Shown: in pieces, positions 14,884 to 64,000 of the stretch | Layout of the letters: every line of letters starts with the position of its first letter | How positions within the stretch are numbered: the first letter of the stretch is position 1 | DNA from: Cyanophora paradoxa CCMP329 | Lineage: Eukaryota > Plantae > Glaucophyta | Direction: 5' to 3' | Assembly: GCA_004431415.1 (NCBI GenBank) | Contig: QPMI01000144.1 | Span: 1-64,000 of the forward strand | Length of the DNA: 64,000 nucleotides | The notes under the pieces: model-generated | What the model was told of the DNA's origin: nothing | Database searches by the model: none | The model's input: the letters and a program-made list of their open reading frames with translations, nothing else | Program-made: the position numbers and the translations under genes

Positions 14884-14916
14884 TTGAATTCAATTATTCT
14901 GTTTTATAGAACATAT

Positions 14917-41957: not shown

Positions 41958-42456
41958 TGGATTTGGGGTCTGTACGCTCGCAAAGCTTGCTGCGCACGCG
42001 TGTACTCTTCTTTTGCTAGCTCTATTGCCTGCTCTGAGCGTCCGGATCCTGATTTATCTGCCCGGTCTAATCTGGCCTTCGCGTTTTTGCAGTCTTTCCT
42101 CAGCCGTGCCTTCTCCGGGTGCTCCGCCTTTTTCCACTTTGCAGTGCGCTCCTTTCCGGGGACTGGCGGCGGCCGCGGCGCTGCAAGGCGCTGGTGCCGG
42201 GCTGGACCGCTTACTAGTTTAACTGAGCTTGCCGGTGCCGCCAGCCTGGCCTAAGAGTCTAGGACTTCCCGGGCCGAAGCTTCGAGGTTTTCCACCGACT
42301 TTCTTTAATTGGCTGAAAAGAAAGAAAGAGAGAAAACACGAAAAAACGTGAAGAAACGAGAAACAGTCAAAAACCAATTGCAATTCGAAAAAAGTCACGA
42401 GTCTCAAAAAAACAACATATTGAACGTGTACCGTCACTACCGTGACATCCGTATCC

Positions 42457-42515
42457 GACGTACGGCGGGTGTGACGGACGTACGGCGGGTGTGACGGACG
42501 TACGGCGGGTGTGAC
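42457..42515. repeat. Three tandem 20-bp repeats GACGTACGGCGGGTGTGACG (degenerate copies at ~42615-42655)
   Basis: Read directly from the sequence. Confidence 0.9.
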
Positions 42516-42817
42516 ACTGTGACAGTCGACGTCAGGCCGCTAGTACTAGCCTAGTAGGCCCGCTACACCCGCTAGCGCTAGCGCTAACCTAGCCTAGTAG
42601 CTGGTACGGCTTGCGGACGTTCGGCGGTGTGACGGACGTACGGCGAGGGTGACGCGGGCGGTCTGCAGTGACACTGTGCAATCGGCTAGCACAGCAGTAG
42701 CGCTAGCGCTAGCGCTAGCTATATATATATAGGTCCTAGCAAGTCTTAGAGATAGCTTCACGATCTAGCGCTACAGCTCCGGCCGCGGATCGAGAGCGCC
42801 ACAATCACTAAGCCAAG

Positions 42818-43486
42818 ATGCCGTCGCACAATCCAACAGCGTACCGGCGTGCTCTGAAAGAGGGGCTGAAGCATCTATGTTCGACGGCACTGGAGCGCCA
42901 AGTAATAAGCCAGCGCGATTATGCGTATTTTGAGCTATTTTTCAGCAGCAACTCGAGGAAAAGTCTTAACTCGATTAACATGTGCATACTATCAATTCAC
43001 AGAATCATGCGCGACGCAAATCAGCAGTACGTGCAAATGATGGAGATAGCTGGGTCGTCCCCTGAGCAAGCTCAACTGCGGGCTGACATCGAACGGGCTT
43101 ATCAACGAGTTGAAGAAGCTGATCTGACTGCGTTTTCCCTAGCGAGTATCAAAACGTTCTCGCACCAGGCTGATTCGATTTGCCCAATTCCAGATGTAGG
43201 CGTTGAGGATTCACAGTCTATCGCTAATGCGTCAGAGACAGCGAGCACCGTACTTGGCGAAGCCGAAGAGCCAGCTGCAGCGGAGGGCATAGCCAGCGCC
43301 GGCCAAGGCGAAAATGACGAGAATAATAATTCAGCACCGGCTGATGCAGCTGCTGAGATCGAACAGGGCTCTGATCGTGAGGAGATCGACGCCACGCGTA
43401 CGGCTCTAGATCTTGATCCAGTGGTTGATGGCTCCGTTCCAGGGGGCTTGGGGTTGGAGGGAGCGAAGTGGTCCGGCTATAGCTAG
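42818..43486 (+). CDS. Hypothetical viral protein with acidic tail
   Basis: 222-aa intronless ATG ORF upstream of pPolB. Confidence 0.65.
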   Translation: MPSHNPTAYRRALKEGLKHLCSTALERQVISQRDYAYFELFFSSNSRKSLNSINMCILSIHRIMRDANQQYVQMMEIAGSSPEQAQLRADIERAYQRVEEADLTAFSLASIKTFSHQADSICPIPDVGVEDSQSIANASETASTVLGEAEEPAAAEGIASAGQGENDENNNSAPADAAAEIEQGSDREEIDATRTALDLDPVVDGSVPGGLGLEGAKWSGYS

Positions 43487-43850
43487 CGCTAGCACCGACG
43501 CCAGGCGAGCTCAGCAGCCTCGCCGGCAGTTGACAGCAGAGGAGCGCGCAGAGCGACTACTGAAGCGTAAGCGTAAGGCGCAGCACGAGCTCTGCCTAAA
43601 ATTGAAAGCAGCTGGGGTTAGAGTGGCTGTGGTGGGAATCAGACGAGAAGATGGCGGCCACTATTTCACAGAGCTCGTCCGACTTCAGAGCAGTTTACAA
43701 GATGGTCACAAATCGTGAACACGATCATGCTGGCCAGCCCTTGACCTCTCTTGCATGGCTTAGAGGTTTCCTGCATTCTATCTAGCAGTCAGAGATTGTT
43801 GCGCTGAAATCCGAAATTAATTTCAGTCCCTCTTCTTGGAAGCGCATGCA

Positions 43851-46800: not shown

Positions 46801-47176
46801 TTGTACGTGACAGCGACGCGCAGCTTGATCTGCATGTACGCGCAAAGGGGATTCCGCAATCGTGGATCCAGGAGCACTGGCTACCAGACGAACCAGAGGC
46901 GAGGAAAGGGGCCCTCGACCGCAGGATCGCTCTGGATGCTTACAGGTGCATGCTCGAGGATCCCACGTACCAACCCAAATGCACAATCGAATCAAAGCTG
47001 GCCCGTGTTTATAAACCGAACGGGCGGCAACGGAGAGCGGAATCAGCTTTAGTTCCATGATCCAAATTCCGTTCGCTCGACAGCTGAACAAGTCGCAGTA
47101 TACAAAGCGCAAGATAATTTCGGACGAATACTATAGTAGCGTCCCCCATGAGTACCGCGCAGGCGAGCCGAATTAA
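43851..47176 (+). CDS. Protein-primed family B DNA polymerase with intact exonuclease motifs (frameshift near 47020)
   Basis: ADFETF, YNGSGFDY, YVEDDV, IYGGR, DVVSLYPTAM, KIYMNGLYGKY, YTDTDS, PKLY, AKGI; alternative frame ends KRKII..SVPHEY. Confidence 0.95.
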
Positions 47177-48334
47177 GCAAGCTTATTACGATCCGGAAAC
47201 TGGCTTTCAGTCTGCGGCGAGGATAGCTAAGCGGCTCAATTTACCGCTATCAAGAGTGCAGGACGTACTTTCAAAATTGACGACTGCGCAGCGTTTTGCG
47301 AAACCTGTAAAGGAAAAGCCATCGACCAGCATAATTTACGGGGAGCCCGAAAAGTACTACGAAGTCGATCTGATTGATGTGACCCGTACGCGAGAACTAA
47401 TCGAGGGATTACTTTTATTATGAACGGTATCGATGTGACGACGCGCAAAGCGTATAGCATCCCTATGAAGACGAAATCGGAAAGCACTCTGCTAGCCAGT
47501 TTGAAGAAATTGATTGATGCACTCCCCTCGAAGCCGGACGTCATTCAGACAGATCAGGAGTTCAAAGGAACCGCAGCAACAATGCTAGCGAGTATGGGCA
47601 TCAAGCATAATGCAGTGGAGGCGCATCGCCCGCAAGCAAACGGCAAAATAGAGAGATTTAATGGTACGCTTAAGCGCATCATTGCAAAGTACATGGATGC
47701 GTACGACACGGACAGATATATCGATAAGCTGCCTGCTTTCTTGCGCAATTATAATTCGTCAGAGCATAGGTCAATTGGTACGTCGCCGAACGCTGCAGCA
47801 GAAAATCCGAAGGAGACAATTGCACGCAACGACTACCAGAGAGAAGCGTACGAGCAACAGCACTATTTTGCCCAAGCGGAATTTAAGGTAGGCGATCGGG
47901 TGCGAGTGCAGCTAGAGCGGCAGCGTTTCGACAAGTCTTCAAAGCCGACGTATTCAAAAGAAATCTACACGATCACGGAGATAGGTGGCTTTGGGCCGCT
48001 GCTCAAATTTACGCTTTCGGGCTACGACAAAGCGGTGACCTACCAGCGACTATTGAAAGTAGCGGCAGATTCAGAGGAACGTCGTGCGGGCAATGCAGCA
48101 CAGCGGGCACAGCAGCGCAGGAAGAAAGAGATTAATCTAATGCAAGAGAATCTAGACAAGAGTGATATAGAGAGAGCGCGCAAACTCGAGCGTTTGCAGA
48201 AGCAATTGTTGACTGCAGGTAAAGAGAAGCTGAACCCAGGAGGGGCAACACAGAGATGGTATTCGTCGTTCCAGAATAAAACTGCAGCGTACTCAGCCCC
48301 TGGCAATACGCGAACTCTCCGCCCACGCGCGTGA
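47148..48334 (+). CDS. Retroviral-like (rve) integrase, 1-nt frameshift near 47380
   Basis: YYDPETG, VDLID / NRGITFIMNGIDV, QTDQEF, KIERFNGTLK, YNSSEHRSIGTSP, FKVGDRVRV. Confidence 0.92.
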
Positions 48335-48400
48335 AAAAGAAAGGGAGCCATCTTGGCTTCCTCCTTCTTTCGCTCCCCTCTTTTTACTAATTGCCGGCCA

Positions 48401-48676
48401 TTAGAGAGCTATAACAATTGTTTGTTGGAGGGACTCTAGCAGAGCTAACTTTTCGTAGATTCGATTGCGATAGCGGCGATTGGCCTCCAGATGGCCCTCA
48501 CTGTTATTGCGTTGATATTTCAAACTGGCTTCGATGTGACGTCGCCGGTAATCAGGATCTTCATTGTACCTGCGCCGATGGCTCTCCGCTCGCTTGGCCT
48601 TCCGTGCCGCAGCGATTTCAGGGGTGACAACAATTGGCTTGCGGCCTGGGCGCTTTGGCGATGATTCGGCATCCAT
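48401..48676 (-). CDS. Small basic protein with AT-hook-like KRPGRKP
   Basis: Resembles 8255-8482 (RYNEDPDYRR). Confidence 0.65.
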   Translation of the reverse strand: MDAESSPKRPGRKPIVVTPEIAAARKAKRAESHRRRYNEDPDYRRRHIEASLKYQRNNSEGHLEANRRYRNRIYEKLALLESLQQTIVIAL

Positions 48677-48787
48677 ATTTGCGGGTTTCTCGTCACAAAC
48701 AAGGAGCGAAATAATTTTATGGCATCAATCGCAGAACGACCAACTGCGTTGGATTTCGAGAATTAAATCCGAGATATAATTAAAACA

Positions 48788-49144
48788 ATGCCAGCAACGA
48801 TCCGATTCGGCAAGTATCGAGGGGAGACGCATCTGGAGGTTGTTTACAGGGATCCAAAATATGCAGAATGGTTAATTTCGTGGCCGCATTTGCGCCCATA
48901 CGATAAGCAAAAGCTTGAGCGTGCATTCGAAATGTGCCGCACAATAGAGGGCTCTGAGCTTAGGAAGATGATTGACTTCGCAAAGCAGCAGCGACGTCCT
49001 ACAGTCGAAGCCGATGGGCTGGGCGAACTGATTACAGTCGAATCCGCCGACCTCCAGAGCTCCCTTCATTTGAGAGCTTGTAGAATTGGGCTCAGAAACA
49101 TTGGGGGTAGCTGGCTTTACAGCTGCATCATCGAGAGCTTGTGA
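48788..49144 (+). CDS. Small protein with DUF3820/ExoX-C-like motif
   Basis: IRFGKYRGET..DPKYAEWL; 3' end overlaps the opposite ORF, so the true stop is uncertain. Confidence 0.65.
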   Translation: MPATIRFGKYRGETHLEVVYRDPKYAEWLISWPHLRPYDKQKLERAFEMCRTIEGSELRKMIDFAKQQRRPTVEADGLGELITVESADLQSSLHLRACRIGLRNIGGSWLYSCIIESL

Positions 49145-49663
49145 AGCCTTTTCTTTTTCGATTTTTAAATAGCGTAAATCTGGCACGTCCATAGGTCTGT
49201 GCTTAAACATCTCGCTTCGAAGCATCTCCCGAATTTTCGCTCTCTCTTGCTTTTCCTTAACGTATGATTCGACATTAGCCGACCGCGCTTCCAGATCACG
49301 CAATTTCGCTGCAAGCTCATCGAACTGGCTTTTGCTCAAAGCTGGCGCACGTATTTTCGGGCCAGAGTACCGCGGCTCGCTAGCCATCGCTTGGAGAATT
49401 CTTGCAGCATCATCGTCGATATCGGACTGCATTTCGCTCACGGTTTTAACTTGTCCATGGCGATCGTCGGTCGCACTGGCATTCGCTGCTGCCGAGGCGA
49501 TCGTTTTAGCTACGGGTGCATTTAGGCGGGGGTCACTAGCTAGCTCACCGCTAGGATCAGCAACAGCTGCGCCCTCAGTTGAGCCGCTTTCAATCAGTGG
49601 GGCGTTCGGCTCGGGGAGCACCCTTCGTTCCCGGTAGCCTTTTCTTGGAACACCGCGTGGCAT
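48872..49663 (-). CDS. Conserved hypothetical protein, homolog of 8945-9679 (3' end uncertain)
   Basis: KLRDLEARS..KERAKIREMLR; syntenic with the ATPase. Confidence 0.7.
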   Translation of the reverse strand: MPRGVPRKGYRERRVLPEPNAPLIESGSTEGAAVADPSGELASDPRLNAPVAKTIASAAANASATDDRHGQVKTVSEMQSDIDDDAARILQAMASEPRYSGPKIRAPALSKSQFDELAAKLRDLEARSANVESYVKEKQERAKIREMLRSEMFKHRPMDVPDLRYLKIEKEKASQALDDAAVKPATPNVSEPNSTSSQMKGALEVGGFDCNQFAQPIGFDCRTSLLLCEVNHLPKLRALYCAAHFECTLKLLLIVWAQMRPRN

Positions 49664-49672
49664 CTTTTTCTC

Positions 49673-50416
49673 TTATGGTAAGATTTTAAAACGCTTCTTT
49701 TTGGGATGAACAGGCGTTGAATTTTCTTTCTTAGGCTCTTCTTGTCTTAGCCATTTAGTAAAACGAAAGCTCTTATCTTCAACGGCTTTATCAACGTACC
49801 AGGCCGTATCATACTTAGTTCCATCCAGGACTAGGCACTGATAATCATGCGCCCAAGTCTCGAACAAGGCGATGAACTTATCTTTTGGGAGATGACTGAA
49901 CTCTCTATAGATCGCCTCGAGCTCGGTATGATTAGAATAACTAAAGAAAAAGCAGTAATCGCTGTTTGATCTTATAGATTGACTAAGAGCTGTTAGCTTT
50001 TGCGTCATAAGAATCGTACTTATATTAAAATGGCGGCCCTGCGTAAAAAGTCGATTTACAGCCTTGCTGTTTCGCAGATCAACAGTTTCAGAGGCGGCAA
50101 CTAGATCGTCCAATACAAGCAATATCTGCGGTGCTTTCTCTTTGTTTTCGATCAACTTTCGCTGTGAATCAATGATTTCTGCAACTATGGCGGGTTGAAA
50201 ATCGTCGTAAAGCTCTTTAGTTATTGCAGAGTATTCACCATTGAATTTGGTGGCAGTGAAAACGACGACTCGGTTGATCTTTGGATACAGCAGTCGAAGC
50301 AGATGCTTTGTGCAATAGAACGATTTGCCGCTATTGGACTTCGATATAAATAGGGCTTTGAAAGGGACCCTCATGTCTCCCGGCTGGAACTGTGCGAGCT
50401 CTTGAGACTGATCCAT
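49673..50416 (-). CDS. A32/FtsK-HerA-like packaging ATPase
   Basis: SKSNSGKS, LLVLDD, QGRHFNIS, IRSNSDY. Confidence 0.92.
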   Translation of the reverse strand: MDQSQELAQFQPGDMRVPFKALFISKSNSGKSFYCTKHLLRLLYPKINRVVVFTATKFNGEYSAITKELYDDFQPAIVAEIIDSQRKLIENKEKAPQILLVLDDLVAASETVDLRNSKAVNRLFTQGRHFNISTILMTQKLTALSQSIRSNSDYCFFFSYSNHTELEAIYREFSHLPKDKFIALFETWAHDYQCLVLDGTKYDTAWYVDKAVEDKSFRFTKWLRQEEPKKENSTPVHPKKKRFKILP

Positions 50417-50478
50417 CAAAAAATTAACTACCGAGATTCGCAGGCGCAGCCAAGGCAGCTTGTCTGACGACACTTCGA

Positions 50479-51867
50479 CTAGAGGTTCACCTTGCGAAGG
50501 CCCGCAGCATCAACAATTAGGACAGTGTGCAGGAGAGCGCGAACCTGGACGTAAATCTTGTTGTTTGCATCGTAAGCGGCAGGATTCATGATATTCAGGA
50601 AGCAGCTGCTGCTGTTGGTGAGATCCACGAAACCAGTTTGAGCTGCATTTCGGATCGATTTATCCCCACTAATGCAAAATGGCAATCCACTCAGGACATA
50701 TCTGTTAAGAGGCGCGTCGAGATTTGAGCACTTGAACACATCAGCAATGAGCTCAGCACCTTGCAAGAGTGGCACAGGCTCGTTAGAATAAAGTCGCTGG
50801 CCATTCAATTCGCAGGAAATAGTTATGTCACGAGCATTGGCCTCAGTTTTAAGGACACTGTGTTTTCCATCAGTTTGGTTCATATTTGTCTGCTTGCGAA
50901 TGCTAACAAAAAGGCCATAGCAGAGCCCACTGATCTGCGACAGATTAATCCGTGTAGGTGCACCAGCCCCTGCATAGGTGATCGAGTCAGCATCAACCCA
51001 GCCAACCTCAGTGGCAGGAATGGCGATTCCAGACGATTTGACTTTTTCAATAACCTGTGCAAAAGTAGCCTCATCAACGTTGATGCAGTGAGCTATAATC
51101 TTTGGATTCGATAGCTCGGGATTGGCAGGAGTGACAGTGAGGACATTGGGGGTTATATTCTGGCCAATGTTTGCAGGGGATGCAGCGGCAGCTCCTACGC
51201 TCCCAAGTCCATCATCTTTAGAGGCATCACCGTTTGCGGCATATTCTGCTACAAACCTACCACCATAGCTGGTCTCAACGAAGCCCTGGGCACGGTCACG
51301 GAACCAAACCTCCACAGACACCTCGCCCGATAGCGCACCAATTGGAAGCACTGAGCCCTCCCAGGGACAGGGGATCTTTACACTGAAAATACCTCCAGCA
51401 CGATTGCTCCCCTGAGGTGGTGTTCCATGAAGCCAGCCACCGGATCGGTACTTCTTTTTAAGCTGAGCATCATCATTGAAAATCAGAGCGCTGTGAACAA
51501 GCCAGTCCTCGGGGACAATGTAGCTGTAGGAAGCATATTTGATTTCGATTCGCTTTACGAGAGCACCAACCGATCGCAAATAACCAGTGCGAACCAGGTC
51601 AGTGTCACCAGTAAATGCGGTCAGCTCTGGAAGGGTAAACTGGAGTTCGAGCCCCTGAAGGAAATTGTAGCGGGGCAGGAAATAAGTAACCCTCTTTCCG
51701 AAGCAGTCTCCATAGTCATTGCTTGGGTTGACAACAACACGCACAGGCTTTGTTTGGCTGGTTAGACCTAACATAAGCTCATTGTTCATGAAAAAGTCCT
51801 TAGCTTCCTGCGGAGTTGTCAGGAGCTCTTTGAGACCGAGTCGCTGCAAGTTTTGGGTAACATCCAT
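50479..51867 (-). CDS. Major capsid protein (predicted double jelly-roll)
   Basis: 462 aa, intact, colinear homolog of 10553-11926. Confidence 0.85.
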   Translation of the reverse strand: MDVTQNLQRLGLKELLTTPQEAKDFFMNNELMLGLTSQTKPVRVVVNPSNDYGDCFGKRVTYFLPRYNFLQGLELQFTLPELTAFTGDTDLVRTGYLRSVGALVKRIEIKYASYSYIVPEDWLVHSALIFNDDAQLKKKYRSGGWLHGTPPQGSNRAGGIFSVKIPCPWEGSVLPIGALSGEVSVEVWFRDRAQGFVETSYGGRFVAEYAANGDASKDDGLGSVGAAAASPANIGQNITPNVLTVTPANPELSNPKIIAHCINVDEATFAQVIEKVKSSGIAIPATEVGWVDADSITYAGAGAPTRINLSQISGLCYGLFVSIRKQTNMNQTDGKHSVLKTEANARDITISCELNGQRLYSNEPVPLLQGAELIADVFKCSNLDAPLNRYVLSGLPFCISGDKSIRNAAQTGFVDLTNSSSCFLNIMNPAAYDANNKIYVQVRALLHTVLIVDAAGLRKVNL

Positions 51868-51911
51868 CGAAGTATATAATTGCAGTGAAAGAAAATAATT
51901 TGGGACTTAGC

Positions 51912-52868
51912 TCAATTTGACGAATTGATCCAAGGATATGTCTTCGATCTTTTCTGGAGCTGAAGCTTGGCGAGCTCGTAGACAACATCACCATTGGGTT
52001 CATCTGGGCCATAACGAATTTCGAGTATAAATGAGACAGGACCTCCATTTAAATCAGCAATTCGCTGCATAAAATCGTAAATCTCAATAGTCACAGAGTA
52101 GAGGTCCAGCTTTGAATAAATATACTTGTACAAAGGATGTGCTTCAGTTGAATCATAGTATGCTATCTCGCCTGGACGAAGGACGCTTGGAATGCTCAGC
52201 TTTGAGAAGAAGCCAGGTATTGACGTGTTCGGCATACTGACAAGGTCACCAATTTCAGGAATGCGTAGGAGCACATGATCATCGGGAGTGACATCAGGCT
52301 CATAAGCGCCTGCTATATATTCAGTATTTATAGATAATGTCTTTGACCGAATCGGTAGAATTGATCGCAGCCCTAGAAGCTTTGCAGTTCGCTGAGCCCT
52401 TGCAACGGCCTGGTAGTTTCTGACTTCCCGCCCACCCTGGTTCGTTGGCAACATCAGAGCAATAAAGAACTCGAAGTTAGCTGTGAACCCTATTAATTTG
52501 ATCGCTGAATTATACGTGCACGTGATACCTGTTCCCGTCAACCTTTCGTTTATCTCTGTCACAAGCGAGGTGACGTCGTAATTTCCAGGTGGAATTGCAA
52601 TGTTATTCCACGCTCCAAAGCCGGCCTGAGGTGGGTCGGGTCCTTCATTAGTAGGATCATATTTGCACCAATATATGTAGGTGTCAAAGACCAAATCCTC
52701 TGCTGGATCGAGTACATCAATTGTGCTCATTGTGTTGGGGATCTCAGCTGATACCAAGCGCACGGCTTTCACATCCTGATAAACTTTAGGCAGTCTTACT
52801 TTAAATTTCGAGGTGGATGTCAGCTCCTCCGCTTGGTGACTTGCAATGCAGACGTAGTCCGTAGGCAT
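51912..52868 (-). CDS. Minor capsid (penton-like) protein 1
   Basis: VKAVRLVSAEIPNT, IPPGNYDVTSLVTEIN, DLNGGPVSFILEI. Confidence 0.85.
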   Translation of the reverse strand: MPTDYVCIASHQAEELTSTSKFKVRLPKVYQDVKAVRLVSAEIPNTMSTIDVLDPAEDLVFDTYIYWCKYDPTNEGPDPPQAGFGAWNNIAIPPGNYDVTSLVTEINERLTGTGITCTYNSAIKLIGFTANFEFFIALMLPTNQGGREVRNYQAVARAQRTAKLLGLRSILPIRSKTLSINTEYIAGAYEPDVTPDDHVLLRIPEIGDLVSMPNTSIPGFFSKLSIPSVLRPGEIAYYDSTEAHPLYKYIYSKLDLYSVTIEIYDFMQRIADLNGGPVSFILEIRYGPDEPNGDVVYELAKLQLQKRSKTYPWINSSN

Positions 52869-52895
52869 CTTTTTTATATCAGTTAGAGAATAAAA

Positions 52896-53785
52896 ATGCG
52901 GCTTACCTTTGACAGCAGAGACAGAAGGCCAATCGATTCCGAGGCAAACTTTGTGCTCGAAATCAATGAACCTATAATCAATCCAGTTGCTGTTCGACTT
53001 ACCCAGTGTGAGTTCGCAAACAGCCTTTACACCAGCATTAAAGATGAGTATCTTTCGATCACCTTTCCCTACATTGGGACAGAAAATCTGGCGGTTTTTG
53101 AGCCTGGCATAATTACTACTGCAAATCTGGGCGAAACAGATATTTATAACTTTGGCCTATCGTTTAATATTAGGCTAGAAGGGATCTCAATCGCATATTT
53201 CAAATTGTTTCGAGACCCAGAGACGTTGAAAATGTCTGCCTATTGCAGCCGTTCCTGCACACTGACCTGCCAGTTCAAAGCTCTATCGAATCTGCTTGGG
53301 CTGAACCGAAATGAGTCTCTCCAGCTGTCTCCTATCGTGCTTGAAGGGGGCAAAGACCAGCAACTGCAGCTGAGCGGTATCTCGAGGTTGCTGGCATTCC
53401 AGTTACACCTGCTCACCCTGAGTACGGCATTGATTTCACCGGAAGAATGCGGAGTGAGCCACTTGGTTATGCTGTCGAATTTCCAAAGATAATCGACATG
53501 AACAGCGACCAGTACCTCTTCCTTGTCTGCGAAGAGCTACGGCCATTTGCTTCAAAGCTTCGCCGCGGGGCCAAAACAATGTGCAATTATGGGCTCGCTC
53601 GAATTCAAATGAGCCAGGACGTTGGCAAGTTCGTTTATATAAATCAGGAAAATGACGGCGAGTGGATCCCCATCGAAGAGCGCCTAGTGCTGACCTCTTT
53701 GCGACTGCGCATTGTCGACAGAGATGGTGATGACGTCTCTCTGAATGGCCTGCCATGGTCTGGTGAACTGCAATTTTTAGTTTAG
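52896..53785 (+). CDS. Minor capsid (penton-like) protein 2, frameshifted near 53350
   Basis: FDSRDR, YLFLVCEEL, LRLRIVDRDGDDVSLNGLPWSGELQF; homolog of 13019-13950. Confidence 0.82.
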
Positions 53786-55261
53786 GTAACGTCCCCGGAA
53801 ATCAAGCCGGAACGCATTCACATTTATAAATTCGTTTGTTATAATTTGCACATAGTTATAAACCTGTGGGGTGATCAAATGCGAGTCACTATGCATTAGA
53901 TCAAAGCCTGTCATAGATGGGTTTGCAGCAAGCACATTTGCTAGGACCGTATTCTCAAATAGTGACCCGTCTCGTAAATATCCTAAGTTGGTCAGAATGC
54001 TGAAATTAAATAGGACTCCGGCAGCAAAGGCTGGCCCATACATAATGATTTGATGTAGCTCAAAAGGCTTTGGAAATTCGACTCTGATCCAGGGATTAGG
54101 TAGAGTGCCACCTTGGAACCCTGTTGAGTTGGGTCGCACATGAGAAGGTGGGTGCAATTCCTCAAAGTCGTTGCTTATGATGTTTGCATCTGGAATTATA
54201 AACCAGTTTACATCAAATGGCGGCTCAACTGTTAAAGTAGACGATATGATTAGTCTCTCATCGTTCAGTAGGTCGTAGTTCGCCAATAGAAAGCTGCAGA
54301 GTGCATTTATTTTAGCATTTATTTCGATTTGTTTCAGCCATAAATCTGTTGTGGAAATCAAATAAGAAATATTCGATGGGGAGGCATCATCAAGCTTGCT
54401 CATGACTGCAGCTGGCAGCGGAACACTTAAACGCCAGTATCTAGTTAGATTCCTATCTGCATCAACTGGAAGCAGTTCCTGCATTTGAAAGTGCGATTCC
54501 AGCTCGCTACCTGACATTAGCATAGAAATGATTGGGCTGCCTGAGAGGGATAGGATCCAGCCCAGAGCGCCCCAGCCTGACGTCTCCGAATTCGAAAAGC
54601 CTGCAGTCAATTGCTCACTGGCTTGGACCTCACCACAGCTAATGCTCACAAGAACAATTGGATCTTCTGCATCGTAAATTTTACTGGCGTGGCTGAGTGC
54701 AGCAACTGAGGGATTATTCAAACAGGCTATCGCCCCGTCAACAAGGTTTTTGTCCCCTAGAACCTTCGGTGGAAAGAATGTAGGCGCTGCAGAAGATGCT
54801 CTCACTGCATCACGAATCAGCGTGCTTGAATATGGCCCATCCTTCGTAAAAACTACTGGCTGCATCCGAACTGTATCAAACGCTGTAATTAATACGTCTT
54901 TTGTCGATTCTGCAATTGTGTAGTCCAGGGCAACGTCTGTAAGCACCGACTCCAGAGGATTTGCATCATAGCGGCTTCCTGAGAGCAAGCTTGTCAGTGA
55001 TCTTGGATTTGCAAATATTGTTGGCAGGTTCGTTTGATATAGACTCAAGATATCACCTGCAGAATATCGGTAAGCAAGAACAGAGCCTGGAGTTGATGGG
55101 ATCGCCAATCCGGCCGCTATTATTGCCCCTGTTGAGGTGCCTGCAAAGAAATCAAACAGCTGTGGTATTGCTTTCCCAGTAATCGCCTCAATCCGCTGTA
55201 GAATTCGGGCTATGACTATTCCACGAGCACCTCCACCTGATAGTGAGAGAATGACCTTCAT
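53777..55261 (-). CDS. Patatin-like phospholipase with C-terminal discoidin/F5-8C-like domain
   Basis: GGGARG, GTSTG, SSAAPTFF, DGA; tail PNPWIRVEFPKPFELHQIIMYG..YNYVQI..RLDFRG. Confidence 0.9.
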   Translation of the reverse strand: MKVILSLSGGGARGIVIARILQRIEAITGKAIPQLFDFFAGTSTGAIIAAGLAIPSTPGSVLAYRYSAGDILSLYQTNLPTIFANPRSLTSLLSGSRYDANPLESVLTDVALDYTIAESTKDVLITAFDTVRMQPVVFTKDGPYSSTLIRDAVRASSAAPTFFPPKVLGDKNLVDGAIACLNNPSVAALSHASKIYDAEDPIVLVSISCGEVQASEQLTAGFSNSETSGWGALGWILSLSGSPIISMLMSGSELESHFQMQELLPVDADRNLTRYWRLSVPLPAAVMSKLDDASPSNISYLISTTDLWLKQIEINAKINALCSFLLANYDLLNDERLIISSTLTVEPPFDVNWFIIPDANIISNDFEELHPPSHVRPNSTGFQGGTLPNPWIRVEFPKPFELHQIIMYGPAFAAGVLFNFSILTNLGYLRDGSLFENTVLANVLAANPSMTGFDLMHSDSHLITPQVYNYVQIITNEFINVNAFRLDFRGRYLN

Positions 55262-55285
55262 TTTTAAAAGGGGGCTTATATAAAA

Positions 55286-55376
55286 ATGTCCTACATCTTG
55301 AAGAAGCCAGTGCCACTTCGTAAAGCTCCAGATTTTGTGGATGATCGGCATATAAATATTCGCGTATTTGGGAGTA
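55286..55376 (+). pseudogene. Orphaned 5' end of the long fibre gene
   Basis: MSYILKKPVPLRKAPDFVDDRHINIRVFGS matches MSYLLRKPVPLRRPPESPEEDRLINIRVFGS at 56004. Confidence 0.85.
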
Positions 55377-55895
55377 CTACTGCTGGAAATTCAGCTGCAG
55401 GAATTGCTTATCAGCCTCTAAAGTGTGCACAATAGCAAATGCATCACGAGCACGAGCAGCAGCCTCGGCTGTGTGGAAATAACCTATGTGCTTCTTTTTA
55501 CCATCTACATTAAAATAAGCTCGCCATTTACTACTTGATCTATCAAAGTTGACTCCAATAAATCCTGATGAATTGTTAGATTGGCGGTATCGATTCAAAA
55601 TTTGCTGGCGCCTAGATGCAACTCGCAAATTTTCACGTCGATTGTCGAGGGGATTATGGTTGATGTGATCGACAGATAGGCCTTCTTCGATATTTGGAAA
55701 GAGAAACACTTGAAGTTTAATTGTTGTATACTTCCCGTTTACTTTTATGTTAGCCTGAGCATAGCCATTATTATCCAAGTGCCATTTCTTCTGAAGAACT
55801 CGTTCGGTATCTTCGTGAGACACAAGGGTATATGCACGAATGTTTCCTCGACGATCACGGAGTGGAACCGCCATTGCACCAACAGGAATGTCCAT
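55377..55895 (-). CDS. HNH-AP2 homing endonuclease (phage type)
   Basis: VDHINHNPLDNRRENLR; NNSSGFIGV..KWRAY..HIGYFHTAEAAARARD. Confidence 0.93.
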   Translation of the reverse strand: MDIPVGAMAVPLRDRRGNIRAYTLVSHEDTERVLQKKWHLDNNGYAQANIKVNGKYTTIKLQVFLFPNIEEGLSVDHINHNPLDNRRENLRVASRRQQILNRYRQSNNSSGFIGVNFDRSSSKWRAYFNVDGKKKHIGYFHTAEAAARARDAFAIVHTLEADKQFLQLNFQQ

Positions 55896-56003
55896 TTCGA
55901 TTCCAGCTTACTTAAGCTTGGCTTCTTTACAGTTAGAACCCGACATCTCTTTATAGCATATCAAAGTCTTGATCTGCATTCTTTTATCGAACCATCTACT
56001 ATC

Positions 56004-59000
56004 ATGTCTTATCTCCTGAGAAAGCCTGTGCCTCTGCGACGGCCACCAGAATCGCCTGAAGAGGATAGGCTCATTAATATTCGCGTTTTCGGAAGCATTT
56101 TGGCTGACTACAATGCTGACAAAGATATACACCAGACCGAGTTTAATCGCCCAGCTGCGTTAATTCTGCGCAACTCACATGTTGGCGCCCCGGACATTGC
56201 ACAGAGATTTTGTCTAGGTCCAGCTGAGAACTATGTTGCTGAAATAATTGGATCCAGGGCGTTGCCGCGGCACCTGCGAATTGCCTCCTCAGGCACTGTT
56301 TCCAAGTATGATTCTGGTAGATTAATCTTTAGGCTCCAAAATGATAGAGGGGTCCACACATCAGCTCTACGCCTAATTGATGAATCCAATGCTGTCACAA
56401 ACAAGACTGCGGCTCACATTACAGGGCGAATTCTCCTTGGCGAAGATGCAGGAATATCAGTGCTAGCATCACAAATCCAGCCGTTTCCCTGGGATTTACT
56501 TTTTACAGCTGCACGAGAAGCAAATATTTTATACGGTTTTGATGTAAATCAAATCGATACCGAGCCAGCCACCAGGTTAGATATTCCTGGATGCACCTTT
56601 GGCTCGATCCTGATGGAAGCTGATAGGCACCTGCTCCCGGCGTTGCATGACAGCTACGATCTTGGGCTCCGCACCAGGCAGTGGCGAAATATTCACGGCA
56701 CGTCGATTTACCAAGATGGAAAAAGGTCATCACTGAACCGGAGATAATAAACATTTTCAACTACTACTTCGGACCTATTGTCCCTATACCACCTATACCA
56801 CCTCTTCCAGGGCTACCGAAGCCAAACCCTGAAGGGCCAGGTCGTGAGAGAGTTGCAGATGAAACAATTCCATTCGGGCAAAATATTATTTCGTGGGAGG
56901 CTGTCAGGAATCGCCCCGTGATAGAACGCTATAAGCATCCGCATGAAGAATACCTGCCGCCTGATATTGAAGTTTTCCCGCTCGAAATGTACACAGAGCC
57001 TGAAGAGCAGTTACTTCCTGATGGCTTAGATGTTCAAGAACTCCAGTACGAGCAACCTGTGATTCCACATGAGCAGCTGCTTCCAGACGGCTTTGAACCT
57101 ATTCTCTTCCCTTGGAGTTCACCGTAGATTGGGAATCAATAACCAATAAACCTGGGAGTTTTCCACCAGAGGAACACAGGCATGATTGGGATGAAATCGA
57201 TAATAAACCGTTGCGGTTTCCCCCAGAGGATCACAGACATGATTGGGCTGAGATCGATAATAAGCCTTTACGGTTCCCCCCAGAGGATCATAGACACGAC
57301 TGGGGTGACCTTGATAATGTTCCGCTTGAATTTCCACCGGAAGATCACAGACACATTTGGAGCGAAATAGATGAGCAGCCCGAGTTCGCAAAGATTGAGC
57401 TTCCTGTCACACTAGCTGTCTCTCTCTACAAATCAATTAACACCCCTGAAAGGTTATATTTGAATGACCACTATGTCCACAGGCAGGGAATTCGTGCTAA
57501 CACTGACATGTCAGGCTCTTTGTTTGTAAGGATTCCCCGTGGAATGGAGATAGTTGCTGCTGGCGGGAATATTGGTTTGCAGGACACGTTCCCAAGTATT
57601 TATGTCACAAACTACTACGCCTCTGACATCGAAATGACATCTGTTCTACCTTTTTTGCCTTCACTGCCGTTGGATCCTCTCTCCCATGCTGATTTTCATT
57701 CTGCAATCCAGATTAATGTAACAGATGTTAGCGATTTAGATTCATCGAGACCGAAATTAGTTTTTAGCCGTGAACGCCTTTTACCCAATGCTCTGATAGG
57801 AAATCGAGATGATTATAAGAAATGCGAAATAGCATGGATAAAAACGAACTATAACGGTGGAGTTGGGGAGGGCATTTTAGAAATTAATCAGAGGGCAGCA
57901 GCAAAAAACATTCACAACGAGACTATATCCAGAGTGGTCACAGAGGATTACCTTCAAGCCCAAAATTATGTAGATGAAACAGAGCTCGCTTTAGTTATTG
58001 CAGGTCTAGCTGTGACAGGGAATTACCTGCCCTTGACAGGAGGAACTATTGACGGAACAGTGACTGCTGACAACTTTTTTGTTCACACTGAAAGTGATCA
58101 GACCTTCCCTGTGGTTCACCCAGGAGCTGAGTACGAGATTCCTATTGATCCTGCTATTATGCCCATAAAAATCGATCTCCCTTCCGATTATGTTGGACGG
58201 GGTGAACTGAAAATAATCTCTTTCACAGGAGATTATAATGATCTTTTAAACAAGCCTACTGCTGAGAACCTTCACCCTGTTGCCTATTCAGGAAATTTCC
58301 TCCATTTAAATAATAGGGCACACACCCACACAAAGGCTGAGATCACAGATTTTGCACACACTCACACGAAGTCCCAAATAACAGATTTTGCACACACCCA
58401 TACCCGAGCAGATATAACTAATTTCGCTCACACCCATGTTAAATCAGAGATAACTGATCTTGGGAATGTTGCTTATGTTGGTCATACCCATACCAAGGCA
58501 GAGATTACAGACCTGGGAAATGTATCGTACGTTGGTCATACCCATGATTGGAATACTGATATCTATAACAAACCGGCGTTGTTCTCAGGCAACTACAACG
58601 ATCTGACCAATAGACCCACTCTTGATCCCTTCACAGCCACCACTATCAGAGCCAATAATACAATGTATGTAGGATCAGGTCAGATTGTAGAACCAGCAGG
58701 GCCTATGTTTGAAGAAACATGGTTCTTCCACAATTCGCAGAATTACTTTGATAAAACCTTACTTGTTCGTGGAAATGCCTATGCAAGAAATTTCTATGCT
58801 ATGAACCCCTCAAATAATGCGACCATCAGTCGATGTATTACAGAGGCAGATCTTTCCAGTCAACTCAATGCATATTTTAATGGGAAAATTCAAGCAGGGA
58901 AGTATGTTTACACTACTCCCGTTTTAGATTACAATAATCTCTATGTGTTCAATCTAACTATCTATTTTACCAATGCCTTTGCTTCTCCTCCTGTTGTGAC

Positions 59001-59178
59001 AGCAACAGTAAGGCATGAAGGACAAGATCCAAATTATCAATTAACTCCCGTCGTTTTTACTGTGAACCTGTTGAATGTTTATAGTAACTATTTTACTTGT
59101 GAACTTTTCACTGATCCATATGCAATGATTAATTCATCCAAAACTGTTACAATTCATTACATTGCTGTCGCAATTTAA
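56004..59178 (+). CDS. Long phage-like fibre protein (~1050 aa if the frameshifts near 56725 and 57110 are repaired)
   Basis: YDLGLRTRQWRNIH, (FPPEDHRHDW.EIDNKP)n, YLPLTGGTIDG, (HTHTKAEITDF)n, SGNYNDLTNRP, C-terminal FTNAFASPPVVTAT..IHYIAV. Confidence 0.8.
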
Positions 59179-59197
59179 CTGTTTGGTAATTATAAAG

Positions 59198-60258
59198 ATG
59201 ACATCTGTATTAGAAATCCCGAATTATGAATTAGCAGCCAAATCACTGCATAGCACCTCTCATGAAGTAGTTGATTCTACACCTGGGAATATCTGCACCG
59301 AAACAGCAAGCAATACCTCCTTAACCGAAACCAATATTTTGAGAGTCAAAGAAATACGCTGTGACCGAAATGGAGGCAAGATACGAACTACAGGTATTAT
59401 TATTTCGAATAAAAATCAGGTTCAAGCAGGTCAAGTAGTCCCTGATTCAGCAGTTTATGATAACGTGGGTGGATTCACCACGGCAAAGATCGTAACTTTC
59501 GATAACACAAGCAATAACTCCGCTCTTGTGGTTAAGAGTGGTGGAGCCTATATTGGTGACGGAGCGATTGTAGTGGGGACTGTCACAGCAAATCAATTAA
59601 ACGTGAGTGGTACATGCATTTTCAGTTCTTTGATGACTTTTAACTATGGCCTTTTAGGTAACATAATTTATGGGACTCTTCAGGCATTTCTGAGAGTTCA
59701 AGCACCCGAAATTGGTAGTGGAACAGATTCCAACATGAGCTACAAACGAAATGGTAATGCAATTGTCACTCTTGAAAAAACGACGGTAGCAGAGATAGAG
59801 ATAAACTCATTCACACTTTCCCCAACTTGCTATTTGAAAAGGACTTATTGCCCAAGATTTTGTGTCACAAAACTATTACCTAATCAGGCAGCATCATCCT
59901 CATCATGGTCATCTGGCGTCCGTATTACCTTCACAGTTCCTAATTTCGCTACTTATTATGTCAACAATGAAGGCAACTGGAATGATTCGTATATATTTAC
60001 TGCACCTGTTGCAGGTGTTTACCGGGTTTTTTTCACAGCTCTCAGAATAGATACTCAGACTTCTTATGTGACTATCTTAAAGCTTTCAATAAATGGAATT
60101 GCATCCGATTACGAATTTCAATGTTCATTAACGGGACAAATGGCTATCACATACGAAACTTTACTTACTCTTAACATGGGGACAATGTTGGAGTATTAAA
60201 CTCAACAGGTGTTACCATCACTATTAGCACACGCTGTTACTTGGGTGCTATCTCGTAA
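59198..60258 (+). CDS. Fibre/spike paralog 1 with C1q-like head (frameshift near 60180)
   Basis: Shared N-terminal KEIRCDRNGGKIRTT domain; FTAPVAGVYRV, LNMGDNV. Confidence 0.8.
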
Positions 60259-60291
60259 GTGCTATATAATATTGTCTGTGTAATATAAAGA

Positions 60292-61317
60292 ATGGCTACT
60301 CAAATAGCAGTCCCTGTTTTCTGTTACGCTGCACCGAAAATTCATCAACTCAACCACACTGTAACAGATGCAACTCCGGGTTTTATTTGCACAGAAACAA
60401 CAGGAGCAGATTCATTTTCGCAGAACTCTTTGATTCGATGCAAGGAAATCCGGTGTGATCGCAATGGGGGCAAAGTGAGAACCACAGGTCTCATCGTTTC
60501 GAACAAGAACCAAGTTCAATCAGGACAGATCGTTTCTGATTCCGCAATCTATGATGATGTGGGAGGGTTCACCACACCCAAGATTGTTACGTTTGATAAC
60601 ACAAGTAATAATTCTGCTCTTGTCGTGAAAAGTGGAGGTGCTTACATCGGAGATGGTGCGAGGATTGATGGAAACCTTACAGCTGAGCAACTCACAGTAA
60701 CAGGAACGACTACTTTTAATAACTTAGTAACAGCTAATGGTGGTGTGTATGTCCCTGGTGCTCAGCAGTCTATTGTGACAGCAACTACCAAAATTGTTAC
60801 ACCCGAAGTAGATACAGGTTCGAGCTCAAATCTTCTCTTGAAACGCAATAGTAATCTCATGGCGACACTGGAAGCCAATAGTCTCACTCTAAATACAGGT
60901 TGTTACTTCAAGTACGATTTTCAACCTCGATTCTGCGCACAACTTGGTTACACACATGTTGCTTCAAGTGCTGCTCCTCTGATCAACTGGACAACAGTTT
61001 TTATAGACAACAGAGGTGCCTTCAATACAGGCAATGGAAGATATACAGCTCCTGTTGCAGGACATTACAGATTAACTGTAAATTCTTCCTCAACATCTTC
61101 AACAGCTGTAAGTCTGACTTTGCAGGTAAACGATACTAACCCTGGTGGTCTGACCATCTTCACATCTGGAACTTCAACTACAATTGCAGCGAAACCTCTA
61201 TATATCAACGTTATACTCAATCTTGCTGCCGGAGAATATGTCACAATTGTCACAGGAACAGCTGGTAGTTATGCAAGTCGAACAACATTTACAGCTGAAC
61301 TTCTAAGTATCACATAA
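60292..61317 (+). CDS. Fibre/spike paralog 2 with C1q-like head
   Basis: KEIRCDRNGGKVRTT; FNTGNGRYTAPVAGHYRL, LNLAAGEYVTI. Confidence 0.85.
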   Translation: MATQIAVPVFCYAAPKIHQLNHTVTDATPGFICTETTGADSFSQNSLIRCKEIRCDRNGGKVRTTGLIVSNKNQVQSGQIVSDSAIYDDVGGFTTPKIVTFDNTSNNSALVVKSGGAYIGDGARIDGNLTAEQLTVTGTTTFNNLVTANGGVYVPGAQQSIVTATTKIVTPEVDTGSSSNLLLKRNSNLMATLEANSLTLNTGCYFKYDFQPRFCAQLGYTHVASSAAPLINWTTVFIDNRGAFNTGNGRYTAPVAGHYRLTVNSSSTSSTAVSLTLQVNDTNPGGLTIFTSGTSTTIAAKPLYINVILNLAAGEYVTIVTGTAGSYASRTTFTAELLSIT

Positions 61318-61339
61318 ATTTTCTCTCTATAATGTAGGA

Positions 61340-61606
61340 ATGTCGAATATCTACCAAGTGGTTCTCTCAGATACTGAGAAGTTGGGAATGGAATATTGTG
61401 CTGCTTCTGTTCAGGATTGGATTGATAATGTCGTTCATAACAGGGCAAGAATTGCAATTGATGAGATTGTTCAGAAAGAAATTCAATCTTGCATCTCATC
61501 AGGAGTTCAAATACCAACCTCAAAGGAAGCCATTGTGTCACAGGCATTCCAAAGGGGAACTGTAAAGAAAGGCATCGAGTATAATAATGTCACAGAAGAG
61601 CAGTGA
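61340..61606 (+). CDS. Small phage-like protein next to the C1q fibre genes
   Basis: LSDTEKLGMEYCAASVQDWIDNVVHNRARIAIDEIV; resembles small proteins I recall beside fibre genes of aquatic tailed phages (not searched). Confidence 0.65.
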   Translation: MSNIYQVVLSDTEKLGMEYCAASVQDWIDNVVHNRARIAIDEIVQKEIQSCISSGVQIPTSKEAIVSQAFQRGTVKKGIEYNNVTEEQ

Positions 61607-61654
61607 AGCTATAGCTTGTCTGCAGCCTATTTTTTTCTCTCGCATTTCTATCAA

Positions 61655-62502
61655 ATGACCGAGTACAATCGGGTTCAGCTACCTATCTACTCACTGGGCT
61701 CCCCAGCCATCCATATGAGGCAGCATGAAGTTAGCGATGCTATTGCGGATTAGAGTCCACTGAGCGTCCAAACTCAACTAATGCATTTGATCAACGATCT
61801 GTGATTCGGTGTAAAGAATTGCGCGCAGATAAAAACTCTGGGGTTGTAAAAACAACGCGATTATTAGTCACTAATGCAAATTTTTCCCAGCCCATAACAG
61901 GGGGAGTTGATTCGTACAGTGTTGACCTCCGAAGCATAAACTATGATCAAAACACTGCTGCCCTCACTGTGCGCTCCGGGGGAGCAGCTATTACTGGAGC
62001 TTGCCGTGTTAGTGGAGGACTATCATCATCGATTGCCATCAATGATGTTCCAGACTTTTCATTAGAGAATGTCGAAAATCGTAAACGAGTTCGAATGTAC
62101 TTACCTTGCTGTGACCTCCCCTATGCACAAGCTCTAGTAGAAGTTGAGATAACCATAGCAAATTCAAGTACACCAAATGGTCTGGATGGTGAGAGGTTGC
62201 TTTCAAACAGAGAAATACCGAAGGCACTTCAATCACTCTGTCAGGATCAAAATGATCAGATAGGGCATGTGTATACGTTCTTTGTGCAAGGTCTTGGGCA
62301 TGCTGGCCGGGGATACGTAGTTCGTAATATCAATACAAGGCATCTTTTCGATTTATATGCTACCGCTATAGGCAGATATTCTATCCTAATAATCGGATAT
62401 CGCTCCGATGTAGCTGCATCAGCGGCCACTAGAGGACTGAACCCTGATCCAGCACTCAATAATATGTATGAGGAGAACAATCCAGAAAATCCTATAGCTT
62501 GA
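61655..62502 (+). CDS. Fibre/spike paralog 3 (frameshift near 61747), non-C1q head
   Basis: HEVSDA..GLESTE..RCKELRADKNSGVVKTT. Confidence 0.78.
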
Positions 62503-62530
62503 GTGAAAGTTTTATCTTCTGTTTTCTAAA

Positions 62531-63364
62531 ATGGAAGCTGTTGAAAGAATTGTTGTTCCCTCTTTGACACTAGCAGCCCCAGCAAATCACGTCCTCCAGC
62601 ATGCTGTCTCAGACGACGTGCCTGGTCTGCAATCAACTGAGCAGCAGCCAACTCTAAATACCTTCCGGGAGAATCACATATTACGTTTAGGCGAGGTTCG
62701 ATGCGACAAAAATAATGGGACAATAAAAACAACAAGTCTCCTTGTAACCAATGCAAACTTTAATTCAAATTATGGGGATCCTGATAGCTATGACGATGCT
62801 AATAAGGTCAATACTTTTACCTTTGAATCAAGAACAGGTGCCGTCACCTGCAGATTTGGAGGTGCTTATATTGGCGATGGTCTGAGAGTAGGCGGCGCTG
62901 CTTGTGCTCCTATATTTGTTAATGATCAACCTAACCCTGAAAACACAAATGAAAGAATTCGAACCTATGTGCCTTCTATGAATTCGCCTTACATTATTAA
63001 ACTATTCACCCTAAACATAAATGAGCAAACATCGATTGTAGATAACGTTCAGCCACTCGGAAATCATTTCAAGAGTGTTGTTGATATTCCCCCGGATGTC
63101 TACTTCCTTTGTAGAAGGAATGATGCTCTCCGGCCAAACATAGCTGTTTTGATCAATCCTATCGATAATTTTGGTGTCGCTTTCCATTCGACTCCAGTTG
63201 GGGTTGAAGATTACCAGTTTATTGTGAGGGCCACGCTAATGGGTGCCTACAAAATTATTCTATTTGCTGAAAGAACAGATGTGATTGCAAGCGGGGTCAA
63301 GTATGGTGAGACCTTCAATTCGAATCGTTACTTTCCAATTGGAGGGGCTGATCCCAACCCATAG
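62531..63364 (+). CDS. Fibre/spike paralog 4, head related to paralog 3
   Basis: HAVSDDVPGLQSTE..GEVRCDKNNGTIKTT; RIRTYVPS..PY and GAYKIILFAERTDV match paralog 3. Confidence 0.8.
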   Translation: MEAVERIVVPSLTLAAPANHVLQHAVSDDVPGLQSTEQQPTLNTFRENHILRLGEVRCDKNNGTIKTTSLLVTNANFNSNYGDPDSYDDANKVNTFTFESRTGAVTCRFGGAYIGDGLRVGGAACAPIFVNDQPNPENTNERIRTYVPSMNSPYIIKLFTLNINEQTSIVDNVQPLGNHFKSVVDIPPDVYFLCRRNDALRPNIAVLINPIDNFGVAFHSTPVGVEDYQFIVRATLMGAYKIILFAERTDVIASGVKYGETFNSNRYFPIGGADPNP

Positions 63365-63397
63365 AATCTTTGTTTTTATATATATTACCCCTTGTAG

Positions 63398-63802
63398 ATG
63401 GATCTGCTCCGTAAATGCATGGACATGTTCCATCTCAACGTCACCAGCAAATTGAAATGCAGTTGCTGCGAGACAACTATCAACCTCGAAATATCTGACA
63501 CTGAGGGCTCACGCACCCCTGATACTCAGCTATCGCCTAATAACACACCCGGACTTCTAGGTCCAATTCTCCTTTTACGCGATCTGATTCACCTATACCA
63601 TGGCTTGATTCTGAAAGCCGAAGATCGTCTTGGCCACCCCAAATATCCCGAAGCCCCTGAAAAGAAAGAAGTCCTTGCTATCAAGTTTCAGAAAGGAGAA
63701 GACTCCAGTTGCCGAAAAGCAACCAGATCAAGTGGAATGAGGCCGCACCAGACCGCTCTGGGGGCCCGTACCGCTTGGGAGGTCGCCCCTGATAGCGCCT
63801 AG
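63398..63802 (+). CDS. Small conserved CCET protein, homolog of 8684-8917 (3' end uncertain)
   Basis: MDLLRKCMDMFHLNVTSKLKCSCCETTINLEISDTE. Confidence 0.7.
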   Translation: MDLLRKCMDMFHLNVTSKLKCSCCETTINLEISDTEGSRTPDTQLSPNNTPGLLGPILLLRDLIHLYHGLILKAEDRLGHPKYPEAPEKKEVLAIKFQKGEDSSCRKATRSSGMRPHQTALGARTAWEVAPDSA

Positions 63803-64000
63803 ATAGAGCTCCCTCGATATTCTCTACTCAGATCCAAATGCACTCGCCCTCACGCCTTCCAATCTTCAAATCCATGCTCGTCCATCATCACGCCTAATTA
63901 ACACGCCTAACTGATCTCAGAAAAATCGCTAATTGATGACGCTAGAAGGGGTGGATCCCTGAAGGTAAAACCAGACTTTGGGGGCGGTCTGGTTTGGGGG
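63739..64000 (-). repeat. Right TIR of element 2 (cut by the window edge)
   Basis: Reverse complement of 39422-39683. Confidence 0.95.

Follow-up and report, generated by a model that had tools for sequence, protein, structure and literature searches.

A candidate head-replacing homing cassette with an antisense HNH-AP2 gene at the start of a fibre-like gene in a polinton-like virus from Cyanophora paradoxa

The first 64,000 nucleotides of contig QPMI01000144.1 of the glaucophyte Cyanophora paradoxa CCMP329 (assembly GCA_004431415.1; this whole stretch is called the window) contain an endogenous polinton-like virus (PLV) in which a fibre-like gene possesses two start regions, the old head and the new head, with the gene of an HNH-AP2 endonuclease on the opposite strand between them (Table 1). 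The old head is separated from the body of the gene by a cassette that consists of the nuclease gene, a spacer and a substitute head and of nothing more, and that splits the fibre-like gene after codon 31 in a five-base replacement. The original prediction, made from the sequence alone, had described two heads, an HNH gene on the opposite strand (55377-55895) and a distance of 24 bp between the old start and the ATG of the divergent patatin gene, and all of this was found as described. The boundaries of the insertion had to be moved slightly: the left junction follows 55378 and not 55376, and the right junction lies between 56104 and 56105 and not at 56097.

Table 1. Features of the cassette, of the fibre-like gene and of the viral element, in positions of the window.
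Feature	Position	Strand	Basis and remarks
Host element, polinton-like virus	39422..64000		terminal inverted repeats; Pfam matches to pPolB, rve integrase and A32-type ATPase; presumed major capsid gene
Patatin-like lipase gene	53777..55261	-	Pfam Patatin E 7.4e-26; divergent from the old start, 24-bp gap
Old head (31 codons) of the fibre-like gene, left as a stub	55286..55378	+	translation; empty-allele contigs join 55378 to 56105 in frame
HNH-AP2 endonuclease gene, 172 amino acids, intact frame	55377..55895	-	stop codon overlaps the left junction
Cassette, 726 bp, absent from empty alleles	55379..56104		contig joint skipping 726 bases
Spacer, 108 bp, AT-rich, between the divergent starts of HNH gene and new head	55896..56003		GC 0.37
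Fibre-like gene	56004..59178	+	about 1058 codons, with an X placed at each of two frameshifts that are likely assembly errors
Proximal new head, codons 1-22	56004..56069	+	depth equals cassette depth through 56064 (80% likeness, both runs)
Distal new head, codons 23-34	56070..56104	+	common to frequent cassette-free alleles; candidate resistance-conferring version of the target
15-nt block common to the allele classes	56105..56119	+	putative right crossover window; joint lands at 56105

The two heads, which open with ATG 55286 and ATG 56004, are identical at 21 of 31 residues and at 63 of 93 nucleotides. Their local alignment reaches a score of 100, compared to a maximum of 48 in 20,000 shuffles, and tblastn returns an E value of 5e-8. 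Where both heads specify the same residue, a different codon is used in 13 of 20 cases. At the left junction the stop codon of the HNH gene covers two bases of host codon 31, and the frame of the old head continues antisense to the HNH gene up to a stop at 55433-55435, resulting in 49 amino acids. Projected onto the empty allele, both junctions of the cassette are located within 5 nt of each other. The spacer carries TATA-like words on both strands and may act as a bidirectional promoter. It also contains a short hairpin-forming palindrome at 55904-55918, just upstream of the HNH start, which could be a binding site or a chance occurrence; the fold of the whole spacer is weak (z -2.2). The observed/expected ratio of CpG is 0.95 in the cassette compared to 0.65-0.70 in its neighbours and 1.21 in pPolB, a difference that was not counted as evidence. 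A target-site duplication at the cassette was considered and found unsupported.

Other copies of the virus were seen as short-read contigs from public runs of one organism, of which 24 are listed; the stretch is present in 20 of these, and six (X1, X2, X3, X5, X8 and X14) were examined here. In all six runs a contig joins 55378 to 56105, skipping 726 bases with five other letters in between, so that the endonuclease-free alleles expected by the original prediction do exist, and in them the old head continues in frame into the body of the gene. The arithmetic is exact, as the 93 nt of the old head, the five letters and base 56105 add up to 99 nt, i.e., 33 codons. In this class of empty alleles the five letters replace the cassette; they are collinear with the new head without any insertion or deletion, and four of the five differ from it. 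Since five collinear letters that are present on neither flank cannot be left over from an excision, the old-type empty allele must be regarded as an intact homologue, and a deletion did not produce it. The in-frame joints show that the upstream ATG 55286, which had been regarded as probably the original start, is the original start and that the alleles without cassette represent the ancestral state. Cassette-free relatives with both heads, named by the original prediction as the observation that would contradict it, were not seen in these runs; the proximal new head is present at cassette depth alone.

The occupied state is documented as well: in each of the six runs a single contig covers the entire cassette together with its two flanks, and its depth is even throughout. 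The empty joint is 4.5-10.4 times deeper than the cassette contig, and the depth of the cassette corresponds to approximately 3.5% (X3) and 5.5% (X14) of that of two listed head contigs; contig depth is not equal to copy number, and the share is taken merely as a small minority. In two runs of a second contig comparison no variant letters were listed within the cassette, and therefore the nuclease sequence of the window is real.

A depth profile of two runs, based on copies of at least 80% likeness, resolves the new head into two parts. Over 55405-56064 the depth is that of the cassette, and for codons 1-22 of the new head the two runs contain no further copy at this likeness, whereas at 56065-56097 the depth rises and loose ends appear; variant letters are not listed for 56070-56119. 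A contig of high depth agrees with the old head as far as 55365 and continues with 16 letters that resemble 56087-56102 of the new head (15 of 16 identical, versus 7 of 16 for the old head), another one starts with old-type codons and turns into the new head from 56070 on, and contigs depart from the window sequence again after 56119. Joining the loose ends of single contigs into allele classes, we infer that the common empty alleles carry a new-type junction, Ile-Leu-Ala, in the three codons before the body, compared to Thr-Leu-Ile in the joint allele; codons 31 and 33 thus differ in amino acid between the old-type and the new-type junction. The right crossover of the cassette would then fall within 56105-56119. 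The hybrid alleles with old-type and new-type parts may represent native alleles akin to that of the donor, or they may be products of repair or excision that have taken up the junction and not the nuclease. The original prediction had called the second head recoded, a view that was abandoned: its last approximately 35 nt match the common empty alleles, and it is better read as the head of a foreign allele.

The left junction is of the old type in every cassette contig seen. Compared to the window, the cassette contig of X3 shows 0 other letters over 785 nt, those of X1, X2, X5 and X14 show 6 and that of X8 shows 4 over a shorter span. For X14 none of these letters is within the cassette, and the two nearest to the junction (55363 and 55369) are synonymous. 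The same cassette interior is therefore found behind two versions of the left flank, which never occur together in one run, X3 being the deepest run. If real, two left flanks would be what repeated homing leaves behind, in agreement with the prediction for the yeast WHO elements that the recipient's own terminus remains as a fragment; they may also be an artefact of the contig graph.

The nuclease shows an HNH_3 domain (Pfam E 3.8e-10) followed by an AP2 domain (E 4.9e-5), i.e., the layout of I-HmuI. The identity as HNH-AP2 protein given in the original prediction is borne out by the HNH_3 match and by fold matches, whereas the AP2 score of 24 bits is below the Pfam cut-off of 33.3; despite this score the structural model supports the AP2 assignment. 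The model has a predicted local distance difference test score (pLDDT) of 96, its best fold match in the PDB is I-HmuI (1u3e), followed by AP2 domains, and in BFVD it matches HNH proteins of giant viruses and phages. The nuclease may originate from phages or from giant viruses: a quick HNH tree gave the query no firm place, and its top structural matches span phage and giant-virus proteins. Column counts were made over the best 120 of 173 homologues. Residues D76, H77, N85, N89 and N101 agree with 114-120 of the 120, and the open reading frame ends two codons past the conserved C-terminal LNF motif of the family. The overall erosion is ordinary: 31 of the 120 homologues likewise deviate in one or more of the 14 columns with the highest conservation, and 15 of them deviate in three or more of 23. 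The HNH-AP2 gene is thus not a long-dead pseudogene.

The fibre-like gene itself consists of three pieces without stops of 238, 129 and approximately 689 codons. The frameshifts between them, after 56719 and 57108, are likely assembly errors because both are at homopolymer runs and the read contigs show one extra base. The product contains a PTR repeat, a weak C-terminal H-type lectin domain and matches to PHROG tail families, and its residues ~199-236 match repeats in proteins of which some have tail-spike or S74 domains. Among 50%-identity representatives 75 matches were obtained, nearly all of them via this one repeat. For the N-terminal part no relative was found among 645 candidates of similar length nor in viral contigs, and scans with an N-terminal motif gave 15 metagenome matches and one viral match, none of which reaches past the motif; a single-sequence fold model of the head was uninformative (pLDDT 31). 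The gene is variable between copies over 56800-59450, with changes in repeat number at 57200-57330 and 58318-58545 and with joints that skip 988, 226 and 192 bases.

The element that hosts these genes is ~24.6 kb long and is bounded by a perfect inverted repeat of 262 nt (39422-39683 and 63739-64000). It displays the features of a PLV, namely terminal inverted repeats, packaging ATPase, polymerase and integrase, and its GC content is 38-54% compared to 60-80% in most of the surrounding intron-rich DNA. The presumed major capsid gene (50479-51867), the candidate for the double jelly-roll capsid protein of a PLV, was assigned by its size, by its position and because its counterpart in another element of the window is 55% identical; it gave no Pfam or PHROG match, and the sole homologue found for its product is a Cyanophora paradoxa gene model with 65% identity. 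Scans with the capsid and patatin sequences over viral and metagenome contigs gave no matches. Downstream of the fibre-like gene, 59198-63364 contains four tandem paralogues (starting at 59198, 60292, 61801 and 62531) with N-terminal domains 33-49% identical and C-termini that differ, one of them C1q-like. The second polinton-like element, at ~2000-15200 on the minus strand, is AT-richer and has the same block of ATPase and minor-capsid genes in addition to its capsid-like gene; no homologue of the fibre-like gene, the patatin or the HNH gene was found in it. Its polymerase region appears fragmented and contains a Cys/His motif which we take to be reminiscent of endonuclease VII. At its end (14400-15160) direct and inverted repeats are nested within each other, and a part of them recurs near 5490-5650. 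The divergent minor-capsid-like pairs of the two elements are separated by 27 and 28 bp, in accordance with the ~27 bp stated in the original prediction.

By analogy with known systems, the cassette is probably a head-replacing homing element, a mirror image at the 5' end of the yeast WHO elements and of the fungal mitochondrial mORFs, with cleavage being putative. In such a scenario a related virus would have possessed the HNH gene next to, and divergent from, a fibre gene of its own. When two virus copies were present in one nucleus, the enzyme would have nicked or cut the sensitive old-type allele at approximately codons 31-33, and repair would have copied the donor, the right join being made by homology in 56105-56119 and the left one non-homologously, flush with the HNH stop codon. 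The recipient would thereby retain a full-length fibre protein, read from the donor ATG and driven by the spacer, with a junction that is predicted to be resistant to the cut. The old head would persist as a stub that serves as left homology arm for further homing and that likely still contains the patatin promoter. A scanning ribosome on the old transcript would halt at the stop at 55435, and therefore the cassette must supply a promoter; the antisense layout would allow one short spacer to serve both genes, like in the other divergent pairs of the element.

Several observations are in agreement with homing. That the two junctions lie no more than 5 nt apart when placed on the empty allele is what a single break would produce, and the residue differences at codons 31 and 33 are as the arms-race model of the WHO elements expects at a cut site (bioRxiv 10.64898/2026.08.13.744650, according to its available parts). 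Moreover, the new head keeps the protein sequence despite its many changed codons. Other observations weigh against it. Position 98 of the nuclease is Gln, whereas 117 of the 120 homologues have Asn, two Gln and one Ser, and in a pairwise alignment Q98 falls on N96 of I-HmuI, a residue described as associated with catalysis (PMC12724721, accessible sections). Hence the catalytic set D74, H75 and N96 of I-HmuI is not fully matched, with D76 and H77 kept and Q98 in the N96 column, and the one miss among the 14 most conserved columns concerns a catalytic residue. Residues 62 and 63 are Gln-Val, while the homologues have His62 in 110 and Arg63 in 103 of 120. The protein is thus a member of the I-HmuI type in structure, with doubtful catalytic competence; from its sequence the enzyme is probably weak or dead now, and that it retains activity today appears possible and yet rather questionable. 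The cassette is also confined to a small minority of copies and has not swept the putatively sensitive ones, a rarity that a weak or dead enzyme would explain. The new-type junction is frequent in alleles without HNH gene and hence not private to the cassette, and no donor virus with an HNH gene and a single head was found in the scans of viral and metagenome contigs, in the motif scans, among the candidates of similar length or among the 50%-identity representatives. Viral insertions that are present in many copies are known to be prone to false consensus sequences (PMC10120064 section 7, as far as this section is available), and the two left-flank versions may stem from it or from graph simplification. 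Finally, cleavage as well as expression from either start are predictions. A stronger version, in which a live WHO-like arms race takes place at the start of a PLV fibre gene within a single algal genome, with the enzyme cutting despite Gln at the metal-ligand position, the cassette having homed into at least two different recipient heads and the common hybrid alleles being resistant repair products that acquired the junction and not the nuclease, is considered unlikely.

The insertion could instead result from a one-off recombination between two co-resident PLVs, homologous at the right and illegitimate at the left, with a break not made by the enzyme, the HNH gene as passenger and the duplicated head as by-product without any homing. 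This explanation would account for the altered catalytic Asn, for the low share of copies with cassette and for the mosaic that the family shows along the fibre gene, where joints and loose ends are numerous; moreover, both junctions would fall on one site after any single break, whatever its cause. However, the insert comprises exactly nuclease gene, spacer and head and ends flush with the stop codon, the break falls where the alleles encode different amino acids, apart from the altered residue the nuclease is no more eroded than its relatives, and two left-flank versions were seen, so that a mere passenger is rated as rather unlikely. It is improbable that the HNH-AP2 protein is a catalytically dead DNA-binding protein whose retention is due to a regulatory role, or to interference with rival viruses, and not to homing. 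The intact frame, the confident AP2 fold and the concentration of changes at the HNH-side residues 62, 63 and 98 would be in favor of this, whereas few copies carry the cassette, D76, H77, N85 and N89 are all retained, and the head duplication stays unexplained with an insertion event being required anyway.

The reverse polarity, i.e., an ancestral allele with cassette from which the old-type empty allele would have been derived by deletion, is very improbable. Two other classes of empty alleles resemble hybrids of old head and new head, and for those an excision between the heads is conceivable; for the old-type empty allele a deletion is largely refuted, as it cannot create five joint letters that are on neither side and collinear with the new head, and the old ATG moreover has the 24-bp divergent spacing typical of the element. 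That the arrangement is an assembly artefact, or a spliced intron with the old start being used, can hardly be maintained. Likely indel errors are present nearby in the window, yet an artefact is refuted by the single short-read contig across cassette and both flanks in all six runs. The description of the cassette as intron-less and intein-less holds, as there is no Rfam intron match in 55200-56300 and Pfam only detects HNH_3 and AP2, in a separate antisense open reading frame; the skipped part ends in AC..GC, letters are replaced at the joint and the skip occurs in DNA-type runs, leaving a spliced intron unsupported.

The feature is thus real and its anatomy is proven by the empty alleles, while homing is likely by analogy and the enzyme is possibly impaired as judged from its residues. 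In the view of the authors of the WHO study, their elements, known from yeasts, form a third class among the homing elements of eukaryotes, in addition to introns and inteins (bioRxiv 10.64898/2026.08.13.744650, available parts). At the locus described here the same logic would operate in a mirrored form at the 5' end, with an HNH-AP2 nuclease that is unrelated and in a small DNA virus of a eukaryote. Nucleases are abundant in PLVs and their role was described as unclear (bioRxiv 10.64898/2026.10.13.758929, available parts); the cassette offers a concrete mechanism for gene-level mosaicism in these viruses. Occupied, putatively sensitive and putatively resistant alleles are present in the public runs of one organism, so that three short DNA substrates and a single enzyme would suffice to test the model. 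Should the enzyme turn out to be dead, the locus would still be a clean, though less interesting, record of how such a cassette forms.

Homing-endonuclease genes of the HNH and GIY-YIG types, including an I-HmuI-like HNH_3-AP2 fusion, are known from PLVs (PMC12220804, PMC11296320, bioRxiv 10.64898/2026.10.13.758929). In the available main-text parts of these reports the nucleases are free-standing or fused to helicases, and neither an insertion into a gene nor a replaced terminus nor a pair of empty and occupied alleles is described. The covered parts of PMC10448965, PMC5871332 and PMC12344493 contain no case of terminus replacement, and no PLV case of a terminus-replacing cassette was found in literature searches that covered openly available papers, most of them at the level of listings.

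The free-standing HNH enzymes of phages, such as T4 MobE (PMC2790892) and the ICP1 'IPA-HNH' HNH-AP2 genes (PMC10448857), belong to the same nuclease class as that of the cassette. MobE nicks the 5' part of the downstream gene and drives inheritance, and the allele of its own phage was proposed to escape by polymorphism (PMC2790892). These phage genes differ in being intergenic, and no stranded duplicate head is described for them in the available parts of both articles (PMC2790892, PMC10448857). In a crude screen of 34 phage HNH loci, two of which were dropped for short flanks, a short duplicated head was present in 0 of the 32 with usable flanks. At one locus (L031, 2500-3700) the HNH gene is located between two diverged copies of a segment of ~125 residues (score 130) with long paralogous flanks. 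The upstream copy ends near an A7 run, which presumably recalls the frameshift sites of tail-assembly chaperones. This locus may be another terminus-replacing insertion or a pair of paralogues. A null distribution for flank similarity within the element was swamped by the tandem paralogues at 59-63 kb and was not used.

The mORFs of fungal mitochondria (Glomus atp6, atp9, cox2 and nad3, Allomyces atp6; PMC3630166) are alike in that the open reading frame of an endonuclease brings in a foreign terminus and gives rise to a hybrid gene. The DNA likeness between the native terminus and the foreign one is ~63% there, while most of the protein sequence is retained (PMC3630166, available parts), compared to 68% DNA identity for the old and the new head of the fibre-like gene. 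In contrast, mORFs replace the C-terminal end, encode LAGLIDADG or GIY-YIG enzymes on the same strand, are mitochondrial and were shown to yield hybrid transcripts (PMC3630166), whereas the hybrid gene of the cassette is known from DNA.

The closest likeness is to the WHO elements of Torulaspora and Lachancea (PMC7282813, bioRxiv 10.64898/2026.08.13.744650), as far as the available parts of these sources describe them. Like the cassette, these combine an intron-less, intein-less endonuclease gene with a diverged terminus of the target gene; in both, the recipient's own terminus is left as a fragment beyond the nuclease gene, occupied and empty alleles coexist and the alleles differ at the presumed cut site. 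WHO elements bring the 3' half of the cellular gene FBA1, encode a LAGLIDADG/zinc-finger enzyme, form clusters and have proven allele-specific cutting, thus providing a nuclear precedent with experimental tests which the original prediction did not name. In contrast, the cassette brings 33 codons of the 5' end, carries an antisense HNH-AP2 gene, needs a new promoter, resides in a viral host, is not clustered and has predicted cutting. It works like a WHO element and is not a member of the WHO family, as nuclease, target and end differ. The terminus-replacing homing design and HNH-AP2 genes in PLVs were already known, and what the locus appears to add to them is a version at the 5' end of a gene in a PLV.

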